A stretch of DNA of 64,000 nt, taken from assembly GCA_963801165.1 (NCBI GenBank), contig CAWDDT010000009.1, positions 384,001 through 448,000 of the forward strand, read 5' to 3'. Shown here piece after piece: positions 46,484-51,564 of the stretch. This DNA is from an uncultured bacterium. GTDB lineage: Bacteria; Actinomycetota; Acidimicrobiia; Spongiisociales; UBA5794. The notes below the pieces were generated by a model. The model was not told the DNA's origin and searched no databases. It saw only the letters and a list, made by a program, of their open reading frames with translations. The translations under genes and the position numbers were made by a program. How positions within the stretch are numbered: the stretch's first letter is position 1; each line of letters starts with the position of its first letter.

Positions 46484-47950
46484 CTAGGAGGCGGCGTTGC
46501 GCCGTTGGGGCCGACCACGGGGGGTGGCGAAGGCGCCGTGTTCTTTGTCCCGGTCGTGCCGGATCGGGTGGCTACGCACAACCCGGCCGTCATGGGAGAT
46601 CTCGACGGTGTCGCCGACTACCCGTACCTGAACCGACTTGCCTCGATACTTGTTACCTGCCCGATAGGAGGCAGCTGCGAAGCTGATACTCCCCGACTGG
46701 TCGACCTTGCGGGTCACCGGCACCCCAGTGGTTTCTGGTCGGACCGGGCGGCCACGCCGCTGTCGTTGCCATGCGGCTGGTTCGTCCTCGACCGCATGCT
46801 GTCGGGCATGTGAGGTGATGAGTACTTCCCGATGCCATACCTCAACCAAACCACCGTTGATAGCCACCGTGACGGTCTCGCCGGCCAGCCAACGCCCCAC
46901 ATGGTATTTGTGACCGGCCAGGCTGATCCGGCCGCCTTGTCCCACCTTGCGGGTCACCCGCCGGACCCCATCTGCTGGTGGTGGCGGATCCGGTGGCAGC
47001 TGTGGCGCATCGTCGATCACGACCTCGAGCGGCACGCTCTTGGCTAGTTCGAAGCGACGGATCGGGGGCACCATCCCGATCCCCTGATGAGGCCGGGCAG
47101 TGTTGTAATGCTCCACCCACAAATCGAACTCTTGTTGGGCTTCCTCAATAGAGGCGAATACCCGGCCTTTCAGGAATTCGCTACGGATGGTCTTGTGGAA
47201 CCGTTCCACCTTCCCAGTCGTGGTCGGCGACCTCGGTGCCGTCAACAGATGATCTATCCCGTTTTCCCGACAGATCCGGTCAAACAACACCTCCCCAGAA
47301 CCCGGCCCGAACCGGCCAGTAAACACCTTCCCGTTATCAGTCAATACCTGATCAGGGACTCCATGGCGTCGCATCGCCAACGCCAACGCCTCACACACCG
47401 GCCTAGCCGTCGCCCTCCTCACTACCAGCGCCGAGACACAGAACCTCGAGTGGTCATCAACCCCGGTCACCACCTTCGCCTCCGAACCATCACCAAGTCG
47501 AACGCCACCCATCACATCCATCTGCCACAACTCCATCGACCGCGACCGCTCCCACCTTCGATACGACGACCTCGGCCTACGACGACGCCTCCTCTGCACC
47601 AAACCGTGACGCAGCAACGCCCGATAAATCCCCGACCTCGACGGCACCGGCACAATCCCCTCCTGCTCCAAGTGATACCGAATCGTGCGAGGTCCCCAAT
47701 CCGGATGAGCCCACCGCATCTCCACCACCCGCGCCTCAACCCGAGGCGGCATCTGATGCGGACACGAATGCGGCTTCGACGACCCATCCACCAAACCCTG
47801 CACCCCCGCATCCGCATAACACCTCAACCAGCGATGCACCGTCTGCCGGGCCACCCCATAACGACGAGCCACATCCGTCACCGCAGCTCCGCCCAAAACC
47901 TCCAACACCGCCTGGAATCGCTGCTCCACAACACCCAACTCCACCAACAC
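46484..47950 (-). CDS. IS481 family transposase
   Basis: HTH VARRYGVARQTVHRWL; WQMD, DDHSR, TDNG, GKVERFH. Confidence 0.93.
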   Translation of the reverse strand: MLVELGVVEQRFQAVLEVLGGAAVTDVARRYGVARQTVHRWLRCYADAGVQGLVDGSSKPHSCPHQMPPRVEARVVEMRWAHPDWGPRTIRYHLEQEGIVPVPSRSGIYRALLRHGLVQRRRRRRPRSSYRRWERSRSMELWQMDVMGGVRLGDGSEAKVVTGVDDHSRFCVSALVVRRATARPVCEALALAMRRHGVPDQVLTDNGKVFTGRFGPGSGEVLFDRICRENGIDHLLTAPRSPTTTGKVERFHKTIRSEFLKGRVFASIEEAQQEFDLWVEHYNTARPHQGIGMVPPIRRFELAKSVPLEVVIDDAPQLPPDPPPPADGVRRVTRKVGQGGRISLAGHKYHVGRWLAGETVTVAINGGLVEVWHREVLITSHARQHAVEDEPAAWQRQRRGRPVRPETTGVPVTRKVDQSGSISFAAASYRAGNKYRGKSVQVRVVGDTVEISHDGRVVRSHPIRHDRDKEHGAFATPRGRPQRRNAAS

Positions 47951-47989
47951 AACAACCTCCTCCGATACCTCTCAGAGGAGCATGAACTG

Positions 47990-48245
47990 AAGCGCCCTGG
48001 GTTTGATGGAGACCGTTTTGTTTGGTCTTCTTTGTTGGCTGTGGTGGCTAGTTGAGCGTAGTGGTTCTCCTCGTGTTCGTCGGGTGGGATGTCGCCGCAG
48101 TGGCTGTGGAGCCGCTGGCTGTTGTACCAGTGCACCCAGGACAAGGTGGCGAGTTCGACCTCCTCGACCGTTCTCCAGGGTCCTTGATCGGGTCCAAGAT
48201 GAGCTCGGTCTTGTAGAGCCCGTTGATTGTCTCGGCCAGAGCATT
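47990..48245 (-). pseudogene. IS3 OrfB 3' fragment
   Basis: NALAETINGLYKTELI, then frameshift to GPWRTVEEVELATLSWVHWYNSQRLH. Confidence 0.85.
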
Positions 48246-48271
48246 GATGCTCCTATAGATCGCAAGTCGAC

Positions 48272-49354
48272 TCAGGCTGCTGGTCGAAGCTCGGTTGAGG
48301 TGCTTGGTTCGGGGAGTAGGTGGTAGAGCTCGCGGGCGACGAATCGTTTCAGGCAGCGGATGATGTCCTTTTTGGAGAGACCTTCGGCGGTGCGTCGTTT
48401 CACGTATGCGATGGTGGGTGGGTGCCATCGCATACGGACGATGATGACGCGGTAGAGCGCGGCGTTGGCTTGGCGGTTGCCGCCCCGGTTGAGACGATGA
48501 CGGCCGCTGGTTTTGCCCGACCCGGCGGGGATGGGGCAGGCGCCACAGAGTTTGGCGAAGGCGGCCTCGGAGCGGACTCGATCGGTGTTGTCACCGGCGG
48601 TGATGAGCATCTCAGCGGCGGTGTCGAACCCGACGCCGCATCGTTCCAGCATCTGAGGGGCGGCGGCTTTGGTGAGTTGTTTGAGGTGTGCAGTGTGGGC
48701 TTTGATCTCTTCGTGAAGGTTCAGGTAGCGGCGGGCGAGCGATGCCAGGCTGTGCCGGATCGCCACCTCGGGGTCGCTGATGTCGCCGTCGGTGTCGAGC
48801 TCGGCGCATGTCATGATCAGCTGGTGGTCGGTGAGCGGTTCGAGTGTTCCTCGTAGGTCGTCGGGAGCGGTGACCACCACCGTCTTGAGTGTGATCATGG
48901 TTGTGGTGTGCGCCTTCACGGCGGTGTCACGGGCGATCTTGATCAAACGGATCGCCTCGATCTGGCCGTCGGCGAGTTTCGGTGTGGCCGTGCCTTGGCC
49001 GGACAACACCGTCCGTGCCGCATGCTCGGCATCGATCGAGTCGCTCTTGCCTGACGTGCGACGTTCCCCACGTCGAGGCGGCCGTGCCACCTCGCGCACC
49101 GTCTGGTCGTGTCGACGAAGAAACCTCGCCAGTCCCGACCCATACGAGCCGCAGCCTTCGACACCAAAGGCGTGAACCGTCCCCAGGGTATGTGCCCAGT
49201 CGAGGAGCTCGGCGTAGCCGGCCGGGTTCGCTGCCACCAATAGTGGCTCGTCAACGAGGCCGCCGAGGCCGTCGATCGCCACTGCGACGTGTTGATCTTT
49301 GTGGGTGTCGACACCGATGATGACATCGGAACGTTCGAGTGCGATGCTGGTCAT
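48272..49354 (-). CDS. IS110 family recombinase
   Basis: DEDD residues GVDTHK, GVEG, KSDSIDA; C-terminal PIPAGSGK, RLNRGGNRQAN. Confidence 0.95.
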   Translation of the reverse strand: MTSIALERSDVIIGVDTHKDQHVAVAIDGLGGLVDEPLLVAANPAGYAELLDWAHTLGTVHAFGVEGCGSYGSGLARFLRRHDQTVREVARPPRRGERRTSGKSDSIDAEHAARTVLSGQGTATPKLADGQIEAIRLIKIARDTAVKAHTTTMITLKTVVVTAPDDLRGTLEPLTDHQLIMTCAELDTDGDISDPEVAIRHSLASLARRYLNLHEEIKAHTAHLKQLTKAAAPQMLERCGVGFDTAAEMLITAGDNTDRVRSEAAFAKLCGACPIPAGSGKTSGRHRLNRGGNRQANAALYRVIIVRMRWHPPTIAYVKRRTAEGLSKKDIIRCLKRFVARELYHLLPEPSTSTELRPAA

Positions 49355-49364
49355 GACTGTTGAT

Positions 49365-49590
49365 CCTTCCGGTCGATGGTCTCCGTGCTCGCTTGGTCGG
49401 GCGGGAAGGACAGGACTGCGATGAGACCTGGGTCGATCAGGCTCCTATTAGGTCACTACCCGCTCGGCCGGCGAGACAACACACCGCGTCTCGGGTGACC
49501 GACACGTCAACGCAAGGACACAAGGTCGGTCATAACAAGGGTCAGGCCACCCGAGACAACAGCACCGAGAAGCATCTCATCTCGGCAACA
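49365..49590 (-). ncRNA. Predicted IS110 bridge RNA
   Basis: Stem 49541-49557/49488-49503 encloses TATGAC and GCGTTG (target match); second loop has ATAGGAGC and TCGCAG (donor-end match); boundaries approximate. Confidence 0.7.
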
Positions 49591-49601
49591 GGATCCTCGC
49601 A

Positions 49602-50273
49602 GTCATACGAGTCGCCGACCGACCCGATCGATGGGACAGCACCGAGTTCGGCGAGTCGTTCTCCGTAGCGGATCGACGTAAATTGCGACCCGGCATCGGA
49701 ATGAGTCACTAACCCTTCCAGGTTCGTGCCTCGGGACCAGCGGGCCATCTCGAGGGCGTCGAGCACAATCTCGGCACGCATATTGGCGGCGACCCGCCAG
49801 GCGACGATCTTGCGTGAGAACGCGTCGGTGATAAAACACACATACCCAAACCCGGACCAGGTGGCCACATAGGTCAGATCAACCACCCACAGCCGATTAG
49901 GCCGCTCTGCGGTGAACTGACGGTTGACCAGATCAGGCGGCCTCACAGCAGAAGGATCCGGTTTGGTGGTACGAACCCGCCGTCCCCTCGTCACACCCTT
50001 GATTTCGAGGCGTTTCATCAACCTGGCGGTCTGATCCCGGCCAATATCGATGCCATCACGAAGCGCCGCCTTCCACAGCTTCCGAGCGCCATAGACCTTC
50101 CGGTTCGCCATCCACAGCGTCAACAACAGCGGCATCAGGATCTGGTCCCGAAGCTCCCGAACCGACGGTGGCCGGCTCTTAGCGGCGTAATAGGTAGAAG
50201 GGGCCAACTGCAACTGGGTGCAGATGGGCTCGACCCCGAACTCGTCACGATTCTCATCAACGAACTTCACCAT
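49602..50273 (-). pseudogene. IS3 OrfB 5' fragment
   Basis: FGVEPIC, WVVDLTYV, HSDAGSQF, GSVGDSYD then IS110. Confidence 0.9.
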
Positions 50274-50614
50274 TACTTCTGTGGGCGGTCGAGCTCCGCA
50301 GCGAAAAAAGCCGAAGCCCGCTTCAAGATCTCATTCGCTCGACGCAACTCACGATTCTCCTGCCGCAGCTGCCTCAACTCCGTCTGATCCTCACTAGTCG
50401 TCCCCGAACGCTCACCGCTATCGATCTCGTCCTGTCGCACCCACGACCGCAAAGACTCGACCCCGCAGCCCAACTGGTCAGCAACCCGCTTGATCCCGCC
50501 AGTCCTCTGCCCCGTCTCGGCACGCAGCTGACGCACCATCCGTACCCCACGCTCTTTAAACTCCGCCGAATACCGCCGTCTCGTTCCATCACCCTGATAA
50601 TCCATAGACTCCAT
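50273..50614 (-). CDS. IS3 transposase OrfA
   Basis: RRYSAEFKERGVRMV, ENRELRRANEILKRASAFFA; T6C slippery site. Confidence 0.9.
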   Translation of the reverse strand: MESMDYQGDGTRRRYSAEFKERGVRMVRQLRAETGQRTGGIKRVADQLGCGVESLRSWVRQDEIDSGERSGTTSEDQTELRQLRQENRELRRANEILKRASAFFAAELDRPQK

Positions 50615-50958
50615 CCTCACTTCAAAACTCAGGAGTCTCCACTATTCCCAGGGCGATTCAATGTCCATCATGAACCGAAACAGGACATCCACAGGGTCCA
50701 GCACCGCCGCGACGTCTACCGACCACGGTGATCAACCTCCCGTCAACGTGACCGATCGCCCGGATACAGTGGGTAGTCGCCCTGCCGAGCAGCGAAGTGC
50801 CGATCTCGGACACCCGGCGACGTGCTCATTATCGGGCGAGAATTGTTGATCTAGGACGGGACCGAGGGTGTTCCATGCGAAGGTCCGGTCCTGTGTTTCT
50901 TCGGAGGTAATGCCTTCGGCGGTGTTGAATGAACTGTGGATGGGGTTCGGGCAAGTAG

Positions 50959-51564
50959 GTGGTAGTGGATCCACTAGATCTTTCAGATTCGGAGATCGTC
51001 GAGGTTGCGCTGTCGGAACCGGGGCGCTTTGGCGACCTGTTCGATCGGCACATGTCGACCGTGTTCGAATATCTCGCACGTCGGGTCGGTTCCGATAGCG
51101 CAGAGGAGTTGACGGCTGACGTCTTTGTCGTGGCGTTCCGTCGCCTGGACAGCTTTGACTTGACCCGATCGTCGGCGCTGCCGTGGCTTTACGGGATTGC
51201 GCACAATATGCTGCGAAGACACCGGCGCTCAGAATATCGGCGACTGCGTGCGATTGGCCGACTACCGGGTCAGCTCCGTCTCGTGATTGATGATGACCCC
51301 GCGTTGACCGCGGTAGCGGCAGCGGACTTGTTGGAGCGGGTAACCGCCGCGTTGTCCGAACTCCCGGTTCGGGACCGTGAACCGCTCCTGCTTCATGTGT
51401 GGGAATCCATGTCATACGAGGAGATCGCACAGGCCTTGGGAATCCCAGTCGGTACGGTCCGGTCCCGGATCAACCGGTCACGGCGTCGGCTTCGTGAACT
51501 CGTCGGTCTCAGAGGGCAAGAACCAGACACAGAACCAACCTCGGAAAGGAGTAGCCATGGATGA
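50959..51564 (+). CDS. ECF RNA polymerase sigma factor
   Basis: FGDLFDRH, AEELTADVF, PWLYGIA, MSYEEIAQALGIPVGTVRSRINR. Confidence 0.93.
   Translation: MVVDPLDLSDSEIVEVALSEPGRFGDLFDRHMSTVFEYLARRVGSDSAEELTADVFVVAFRRLDSFDLTRSSALPWLYGIAHNMLRRHRRSEYRRLRAIGRLPGQLRLVIDDDPALTAVAAADLLERVTAALSELPVRDREPLLLHVWESMSYEEIAQALGIPVGTVRSRINRSRRRLRELVGLRGQEPDTEPTSERSSHG

Follow-up and report, generated by a model that had tools for sequence, protein, structure and literature searches.

Among insertion sequences of the IS110 family, IS4321 and IS5075, members of the IS1111 group, in which the gene precedes the RNA region, are reportedly specific for the terminal repeats of Tn21-family transposons, IS1383 is said to be specific for IS1384, and the natural targets of IS621 are said to be REP sequences. 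The element described here is an IS110-family insertion sequence found within an IS3-family transposase gene of an uncultured bacterium (GTDB lineage Actinomycetota, Acidimicrobiia, Spongiisociales, UBA5794). It lies in a stretch of 64,000 nucleotides (nt) referred to below as the window (assembly GCA_963801165.1, contig CAWDDT010000009.1, positions 384,001 to 448,000), and all coordinates are window positions unless another locus is named. Like the reported targets of IS4321, IS5075 and IS1383, the target of the window element is part of another transposable element, but it consists of conserved codons and not of non-coding ends, and as a coding target it also differs from the REP sequences attributed to IS621.

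Guidance of IS110-family recombinases by bridge RNAs, also called seekRNAs, is established (PMC11208160, PMC11187229). As described by Durrant et al. 2024 (PMC11208160) and Hiraizumi et al. 2024 (PMC11208158), the IS621 transposase combines a DEDD RuvC-like domain with a Tnp domain that contains the catalytic serine (S241, PMC11208158), and it works with a 5′ RNA whose target and donor loops hold left guides that pair with the bottom strand and right guides that pair with the top strand (PMC11208160, PMC11208158), with handshake guides adjoining the right guides (PMC11208158). The window element appears to share this plan, including a pattern similar to that of the handshake guides. It differs in that its protein is a distant relation, which only a profile search links to IS621, and in that both ends of IS621 carry the core dinucleotide CT, whereas target (AC) and donor (TC) of the window element share the C only.

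The second described system, ISEc21 (Siddiquee et al., Nat Commun 2024, PMC11187229), targets codons around the second catalytic aspartate of IS3 transposases. As described there, ISEc21 resembles the window element in its upstream non-coding guide RNA region, in which the bottom-strand match lies 5′ of the top-strand match, in a promoter formed at the joined ends (putative in the window element), in insertion without duplication and in having a conserved IS3 codon block as its target. The two differ in which block is used. ISEc21 is aimed at the second aspartate (HSD; PMC11187229), whereas the window element sits at Y-D^N-A (a caret marks the insertion point), next to the catalytic glutamate. 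The target of the window element is thus not placed around the second aspartate of the DDE triad; in the window orfB the HSD aspartate is 32 codons upstream of the insertion point, and the window element therefore represents a related but distinct lineage aimed at another catalytic block. As ISEc21 is in print, the concept of an IS110 element directed at IS3 transposase codons is not new. Literature searches for the Y-D^N-A target recovered only the ISEc21 work, and the figures and supplements of PMC11187229 and PMC11208160, which were outside the scope of these searches, may hold members of the same clade.

Judged from sequence comparison, the window copy is very probably an apparently intact IS110-family element working as a bridge-RNA (seekRNA) guided recombinase system. 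Computation establishes its anatomy, the complementarity of its guides to target and ends, the co-variation of guides and partners, repeated independent insertions at one IS3 codon, and the recent movement of a relative.

Anatomy of the Insertion and its Recombinase

The element splits orfB of its IS3 host, and both junctions can be read. The left junction, ..TCGTATGAC^TGCGAGGATCC, falls between 49602 and 49601 and the right junction, ..CTATAGGAGCATC^AATGCTCTGGCCGAG, between 48246 and 48245; on the minus strand TGCGAGGATCC is the 5′ end of the element and CTATAGGAGCATC its 3′ end. The flanks translate as ..VGDSYD^NALAETINGLYKTEL, which places the insertion after the aspartate of Y-D-N-A, four codons before the catalytic glutamate. 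An initial annotation of this DNA had located the break at TATGAC^AATGC, and its coordinates for TATGAC, GCGTTG, ATAGGAGC, TCGCAG, the enclosing stem and the promoter-like hexamers are all correct on the minus strand. The host orfB matches NF033516 (IS3 family; 235 bits, profile positions 91-312 of 369) as well as Pfam rve and HTH_21, and the insertion point coincides with the end of the rve profile.

Features characteristic of the IS110 group are evident at these junctions. The reading frame is continuous across the joined flanks, there are no extra bases and no target duplication, and the window element has no terminal inverted repeats. The recombinase open reading frame (ORF) is preceded by 247 nt and followed by 26 nt of non-coding sequence, and 29 relatives agree with the window element in ends and length (1323-1389 base pairs, bp).

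The recombinase matches the Pfam families DEDD_Tnp_IS110 (PF01548, E 4.8e-16) and Transposase_20 (PF02371, E 3.8e-16), both above their cut-offs, and the NCBIfam family NF033542, 'IS110 family RNA-guided transposase' (159.3 bits, cut-off 140). A search of Protein Data Bank (PDB) chains with the single sequence gave no match at E 0.001; a profile of 15 homologues retrieved the IS621 transposase 8wt6 with an E-value of 1.3e-16. In the alignment, residues D16, E66, D105, D108 and S279 stand opposite the motifs IDT, IEATG, DTVDA and ESG of chain 8wt6_A, and among the 15 homologues the four acidic residues are invariant and S279 is at least 90% conserved. The positions of these and other features are compiled in Table 1.

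Table 1. Features of the IS110-family element and of its IS3 host, in window coordinates.
Feature	Position	Strand	Remarks
Complete IS110-family (IS110-group) insertion sequence, 1356 bp	48246-49601	minus	Junctions read; one full match in own genome
Recombinase ORF, 360 aa, intact	48272-49354	minus	Pfam, NCBIfam and IS621 profile match
Target-binding loop (predicted)	49485-49561	minus	Alignment A1 and RNAalifold
Target loop, outer stem	49561-49541 / 49503-49485		Encloses both target guides
Target loop, left target guide UUAUGAC	49535-49529		Small hairpin 49527-49517
Target loop, right target guide GCGUUG	49513-49508		Followed by A at 49507
Donor-binding loop (predicted)	49389-49474	minus	Outer stem 49474-49459 / 49405-49389
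Donor loop, left donor guide AUAGGAGC	49448-49441		Hairpin 49438-49425
Donor loop, right donor guide UCGCAG	49421-49416		Followed by UC at 49415-49414
Right end, 26 nt after the stop codon	48246-48271	minus	Left donor sequence ATAGGAGC 48256-48249; last three bases ATC; -35-like TTGCGA 48265-48260
-10-like GAGGAT in left end, half of putative junction promoter	49593-49598	minus
Left target half TATGAC, codons Tyr-Asp of IS3 orfB	49602-49607	minus
Right target half AATGC, codon Asn and first two bases of Ala	48241-48245	minus
Host IS3-family element, 1317 bp without the insert	47988-50660	minus
Host IS3 terminal inverted repeats, 26 nt, 81% complementary	47988-48013 / 50635-50660
Host IS3 orfA	50273-50620	minus
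Host IS3 ALIL frameshift pseudoknot	50199-50312	minus	83.6 bits, E 4.8e-21
Host IS3 orfB, N-terminal part	49602-50273	minus
Host IS3 orfB, C-terminal part, then frame change	48048-48245	minus

Target-Binding and Donor-Binding Loops

The 5′ region of the element is predicted to fold into two stem-enclosed internal loops, one for the target and one for the donor. The long stem that had been noticed around TATGAC (49534-49529) and GCGTTG can be extended to the limits given in Table 1; the second loop, in which ATAGGAGC repeats a sequence of the right end and TCGCAG is complementary to the left end, is also recovered.

With 32 distinct left ends as input, RNAalifold predicted for each loop an outer stem plus a small hairpin. 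In the target outer stem 10 of the 17 pairs have changes on both sides, and the hairpin changes from GAC/GUC to GGC/GCC in 12 of the 32 sequences. Taken together, the five scaffold helices have 19 of 35 pairs changed on both sides; none of 500 shuffles reaches the observed measures, and scaffold cells are paired in 93.9% of cases compared with 33-51% when the partner strand is slid. The same program also joined the two target guides over 3 nt, and the left donor guide over 4 nt to bases that follow the right donor guide. These proposed guide-guide pairings have double changes in 0 of 11 pairs, no different from shuffles, and they are broken at loci L022 and L044, whose guide has changed in step with the element end (L numbers are locus labels). 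The guide hexamers therefore behave as guides in loops, and their earlier placement in loops as opposed to stems holds.

Two relatives, L010 (79% identity) and L030 (70%), have kept the right donor guide and the IS3 right flank N-A-x-A-E-S, and a quite different upstream sequence replaces their target loop and left donor guide; they may be hybrids or represent another loop type.

Co-variation of Guides with Targets and Ends

In an alignment of 35 left ends the four guide motifs stand in fixed columns; the guide tables exclude L010, L030, L031, L035, L045, L047, L068 and L069, whose left ends are missing, truncated or of a different type. In 34 of the 35 loci the right donor guide is exactly complementary to a C followed by the first 5 nt of the left end; L022 deviates by a single G-U pair, and the double change UCACAG/TGTGA occurs in four (L017, L018, L028, L029). 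The left donor guide equals bases 11 to 4 from the right end, and here guide and end change together in L022 (GAAGC) and, among distant relatives, in L048 (AAGAGC), L053 and L058 (GGAGA), and L055 and L056 (GAAGC).

The left target guide is mostly UAUGAC and faces targets with TAT or TAC, forming U-A or U-G; where the guide is UACGAC, the target has C in all five loci with a readable left flank. The right target guide is mostly GCGUUG and faces CAACGC (16 targets) or CAATGC (5), forming G-C or G-T; the window target, CAATGC, has one G-T wobble against its guide. Guides GGAUUG (L039) and GGGUUG (L046) both accompany CAATCC targets. Relatives at 37-55% identity carry entirely different target guides that match their own flanks, as in GGGUGUGAC with GGGTGTGAC (seven loci), UUCCACAAC with TTCCACAAC, and UAUCCG with C+GGATA. 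As the four motifs recur in 34 relatives at homologous places of the 5′ region, co-varying with flanks and ends, they are more than chance.

The strength of this association was assessed by taking one target per guide class and shuffling the assignments 20,000 times. The left target guides scored 196 against 126.9 ± 6.3 for shuffled assignments and the right target guides 83 against 51.6 ± 5.1; in both cases no permutation (0 of 20,000) reached the observed score, so that guide and target co-vary, a point that the initial annotation had proposed to check. Misfits (L049, L057, L060, L065) and loci with a different 5′ region (L051, L052, L061, L067) were kept in the permutation, among them three with doubtful right ends (L057, L060, L065) that lower the right-guide score. 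For the distant relatives the left ends were located from the right donor guide, so its agreement there is assumed, and only the target guides and the left donor guide count as tests.

These data bear on the notion that the protein alone picks the site and that the complementarities of the 5′ region are coincidental or have a regulatory function only. No support for it was found. The pairings of 3 nt of the target guides and 4 nt of the left donor guide that RNAalifold proposes, in 97% of cells, are those that have 0 of 11 double changes and are broken in L022 and L044. Given in addition that guide-target and guide-end co-variation extends across clades at a level reached by 0 of 20,000 permutations, and that bridge or seek RNAs have been experimentally shown for IS621 (PMC11208160) and ISEc21 (PMC11187229), a protein-only choice of site is scarcely credible.

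Two side observations concern the guides themselves. The Parafrankia loci L046 (2272-3631) and L039 (505-1862) are 96.5% identical copies with re-aimed guides, AAACGAC+GGGUUG and AAACGAC+GGAUUG, respectively. The base immediately 5′ of the right donor guide is A in 12 of 12 loci with the left end TGCGAGG, and in nine TGCGATG loci it is C (6), G (1) or A (2); it would mismatch the sixth left-end base in 18 of the 21 loci, possibly an avoided pairing.

Insertion Sites of the Relatives

A scan of one genome per species yielded 80 loci encoding relatives, each of which was oriented by its IS110 gene, with ends set by alignment and flanks translated in frame. The close clade, defined by at least 63% protein identity (63-80%), comprises 43 entries from several phyla including the window; L074 and L084, whose best alignment is below 63%, are excluded. 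An informative flank is available for 40 entries, L024, L031 and L044 being left out for flanks that are too short.

Thirty of these 40 are inserted at the same codon of an IS3-type orfB, within G-D-x-(Y/F/W)-D^N-A-x-x-E, and they represent 28 host contexts. One more (L046) is found at S-N-D^N-P-Y-S-E, the homologous D^N-P of a different rve-type transposase, again where the rve profile ends. Every IS3-hosted relative has the same orientation as orfB (sense). When the two orfB halves were used as tblastn queries, the N-terminal half ended exactly at residue 223 upstream of the IS110 element in 15 loci, with hosts 31-70% identical. In each of five low-identity hosts the Pfam rve match stops at profile position 99-102 of 102, and the NF033516 match ends at 312 or 313 of 369 in all four cases (window, L017, L018 and L046, the last below the family cut-off). 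The same junction is present in two plasmid copies from isolates, Rhodococcus rhodochrous GD02 (L109) and Paenarthrobacter ureafaciens, the latter 5′-truncated by an IS1380 element. The suggestion that the guide reads TAYGAC^AAYGC of IS3 orfB and that the element homes to it is thus borne out by the 30 relatives at this codon, together with the co-variation of guides and scaffold helices. Its corollary, that the element disables other transposons, follows only from the position of the insertion, which cuts off the catalytic glutamate, and the novelty of the idea is lessened by the publication of ISEc21.

That these insertions are independent can be judged from the flanks. By 120 nt at the junction, the 32 IS3-hosted loci (the two plasmid copies included) fall into 29 host-flank clusters with a median between-cluster nucleotide identity of 46%. 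A single IS3::IS110 composite that arose once and spread by descent or transfer would need no repeated homing, and some loci are of this kind: L019 and L020 share element and flanks, L021 and L047 share the element and the one flank that permits comparison, and each pair may go back to a single insertion that was duplicated; L032 and L043 fall together by their left flanks. Such a composite is very improbable as the general explanation, because besides the number and divergence of the clusters the host proteins are 31-70% identical where the IS110 proteins are 63-80% identical, and because identical elements occur in unrelated IS3 hosts on one contig. The latter, L013 and L014, show no difference over 1365 nt (100% identity); one 2.7-Mb contig carries both, each in an IS3 orfB gene of its own, and alignment of their flanks fails on the left side and extends over no more than 83 nt, at 75%, on the right. 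This pair therefore rules out a single ancestral composite and indicates recent movement to a second IS3 at the same codon.

Among more distant relatives, an element on a Klebsiella pneumoniae plasmid (L142, NZ_CP101838.1, about 1490-2870; L141 has the same protein) directly follows ..VIVHSD in an IS3-type orfB. Its protein is 44-47% identical to the window recombinase and, at 358 aa, has the length given for TnpEc21 in PMC11187229; the record labels it only as 'IS110 family transposase'. The element repeats its left flank, CACAGCGAT, within a CUGAC..CGAC..GUCGG scaffold like that of the window element, and it is probably ISEc21 or a close relative. Plasmid records matching the window protein number 1932, of which 1028 are from Klebsiella, figures that include any match. 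A search with the DNA of the window element in 5,426 Escherichia coli genomes gave no match.

Dehalococcoidia relatives (46-55% identity) sit in repeated sequence, as seen in the right flanks of L055, L056, L067 and L072 and the left flanks of L055, L056 and L062; the left part of the repeat ends in ..GGTAAC, the right part begins (G/A)(T/A)TTTTGTTGAGGC, and ATTGTGAGGCAAT recurs nearby.

Specificity, Crossover and the State of the Window Copy

A number of observations weigh against a working, IS3-directed guided recombinase at this locus, and they concern the RNA fold, the choice of sites, the crossover and the window copy itself. With regard to the fold, the minimum free energy (MFE) structure of 49355-49601 as a single sequence is weak (z = -1.82 against shuffles), and a search of 47000-51000 against Rfam, at E up to 1, found only ALIL in the IS3 host and no curated family for the 5′ region. 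The single-sequence MFE fold, which pairs guide segments with each other, was set aside as evidence for the loops. As that fold is marginal, it is the alignment that supports the loops; of the structure expected for 49355-49601 on the initial annotation, the helices derived from the alignment are upheld and the single-sequence fold is not.

With regard to sites, nine of the 40 close relatives are elsewhere or in unidentified sequence (L011, L012, L034, L037, L038, L039, L042, L045, L071). The proposal that such loops would not recur at unrelated sites therefore fails in part; seven of the nine (not L038 and L045) have both guide loops and at least one flank readable, and in these most flank positions still agree with the guides. 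This speaks for the limited specificity of an 11-nt site and is not an argument against RNA guidance. The nine include near-identical copies in two metagenome-assembled genomes of Alphaproteobacteria at partial-match sites outside IS3, and L039, where the HNH domain of a group II intron maturase adjoins the insertion (Pfam). The genome of the window has ten intact exact copies of TAYGACAAYGC (five for a control pattern), and all are unoccupied: one in an IS3 orfB (L095, contig C6) and nine outside IS3. As nine of ten exact 11-mers are outside IS3, the guide alone cannot explain 30 of 40 insertions at the IS3 codon; it must be supplemented by further recognition or by selection acting once the element has inserted.

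The element might accordingly be guided to an 11-nt word and have no specialisation for IS3, the enrichment in IS3 reflecting survivorship as insertions in host genes are purged. The one-in-ten share of IS3 orfB among the exact sites of this genome fits such a view, as do the near-identical alphaproteobacterial copies at non-IS3 partial matches (L011, L012, L034, L071) and the intron maturase site of L039. Yet the positions read are exactly those at which four conserved codons are non-degenerate or transition-degenerate, the guide has U and G at both wobble positions, the re-targeted L046 is again at the homologous D^N-P of another rve transposase, and the 44%-identical enterobacterial relative occupies another catalytic codon block of IS3 orfB. 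Survivorship without specialisation is for these reasons rather unlikely, although the two readings are compatible, and selection could have shaped the guide.

With regard to the crossover, donor and target share one base, the C before it (35 loci), which makes the core geometry uncertain. Targets read GAC^AAY and donors (A/T)TC^TG(C/T), with ..ATC^TGC as the window donor. The left donor guide does not reach the last three bases of the end, which leaves ATC unpaired, unlike the described IS621 scheme. The right target guide is followed by A in 35 of 35 loci, which fits the T that the donor has at position 8 in 30 of 30 right ends. UC follows the right donor guide, again in 35 of 35, and fits the GA of targets ending in GAC (31 of 33; the other two end in GGC); in distant relatives UU goes with targets ending in AAC in nine loci, with five exceptions. 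By analogy with the handshake guides of IS621, position 8 may be read crosswise by the other loop, with a shift of one base relative to IS621.

The remaining points concern the state of this copy. On abutted ends TTGCGA and GAGGAT would be set 17 bp apart (14 nt of the right end and 3 nt of the left end), the arrangement read earlier from the sequence as a junction promoter; in the integrated copy no complete sigma-70-like promoter was detected. Similar -35/-10-like arrangements are conserved in relatives, 17-18 nt apart when the ends are abutted: the -10-like position holds GAGGAT (13), GATGAT (12), GAGCAT (7) or others (3) in 35 relatives, and of 37 right ends 16 have TTGNNN at the 17-nt register and 19 a hexamer fitting TTGAC shifted by one base. 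The TTGCGA of the window is weaker than the TTGAC(A/G) or TTGACA of most relatives. The element is also single-copy in its own genome, and a DNA search of 30 relatives found no near-identical copy, only partial matches with 66-88% identity over parts of the gene.

It is quite possible, if not what we expect, that the window copy is a fossil, correctly built and no longer moving. Its single copy, the perfect but unoccupied target L095 in the same genome, the weak -35-like hexamer, the absence of a close copy in the 30 relatives searched and the decay of its IS3 host, with a frame change in the C-terminal part of orfB, are all in keeping with this. The intact ORF with all five catalytic positions points the other way, as do the four guides, which still match their partners if one G-T wobble is allowed.

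Proposed Mechanism

On the reading preferred here, that of a guided and apparently intact element, the two loops of the 5′ region would act as follows. In the donor loop AUAGGAGC would pair with the right end and UCGCAG with C and the five bases that begin the left end. The target loop would read 11 nt, TAY GAC AAY GC, which spell the codons Tyr-Asp-Asn plus bases one and two of the Ala codon and stand four codons ahead of the catalytic glutamate of IS3 OrfB. Because the guide has U and G opposite the two codon third positions, both synonymous codons could pair in each case (U-A or U-G, and G-C or G-T). A guide that reads conserved codons and tolerates wobble would thereby allow the element to land, in sense orientation, in diverse IS3 transposase genes of many phyla, and the insertion would sever the glutamate-containing C-terminus of OrfB. 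By analogy with IS621 and ISEc21, the RNA is presumably produced, a circle would form in which the joined ends create a -35/-10 promoter, and the recombinase would use Ser279 and the DEDD residues, with a single shared core base, C, and its neighbour read crosswise. On the same grounds, IS3 may serve as a safe, abundant and mobile landing pad.

A broader proposal, which is tentative and on balance doubtful, is that of an IS110 superclade, spread across phyla and parasitic on IS3/rve-type transposons, whose guides are re-aimed among conserved transposase features and which acts as a brake on IS3 expansion. Its targets would include HSD^QG (enterobacterial ISEc21 type), Y-D^N-A (window clade), N-D^N-P (Parafrankia) and the ALIL stem-loop (an unrelated IS110 element in the same genome). 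U and G at codon third positions would keep synonymous variants targetable, sense orientation would let transcription of the host IS3 supply the guide RNA, and any new host carrying IS3 would offer a ready landing pad.

Neighbouring and Other IS110-Family Elements

The downstream part of the host orfB (47878-48245) changes its frame between the K-T-E-L-I and G-P-W-R or W-V-H-W-Y-N segments, and because the WVHWYN segment is in another frame, in an ORF at 47878-48144, the host IS3 has a second lesion besides the IS110 insertion. Next to it, at 46484-47950, is an intact gene for a 488-aa IS481-family transposase (NF033577, 299 bits) with a Mu-transposase C-terminal domain; its end is 38 bp from the IS3 right inverted repeat, which makes the locus a small nest of three insertion sequences.

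The same genome contains a second, unrelated IS110-family element (L003, contig C6, 2194-3647) that splits a 75%-identical relative of the host IS3. It lies within ALIL stem-loop 1, antisense to the IS3, its ORF is broken into pieces of 129 and 170 aa, and CT is present on both sides, as in the IS621 core; its 5′ region, read by eye, has the left-target 7-mer and the complement of the right target. Homologues of L003 (34-73% identity) were sought in 150 genomes of the order, and at the 27 loci in other genomes (L115 and L123 left out) no IS3 orfA or orfB was found within the flanks covered. Two more IS110-family genes of this genome, at C7:41487-42500 and C13:72152-73144 (L008, L009), are 30% identical to that of the window.

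Implications

The window clade provides a second, well-populated natural RNA guide that appears to be aimed at the catalytic-motif codons of another transposon, with dozens of independent insertions in several phyla. Its notable features are the breadth of the clade, the wobble-compatible guide, a one-base core with apparent crosswise reading, and natural re-targeting. An 11-nt guide would remain useful across hosts by reading positions that are fixed by the protein and by tolerating synonymous transitions through G-U and G-T pairs. For the engineering of bridge recombinases, the clade offers natural data on wobble tolerance, on a one-base core and on crosswise, handshake-like reading. For the biology of insertion sequences, it illustrates how these elements prey on each other: the insertions can inactivate IS3 copies, and the split transposase genes that result confuse automated annotation.

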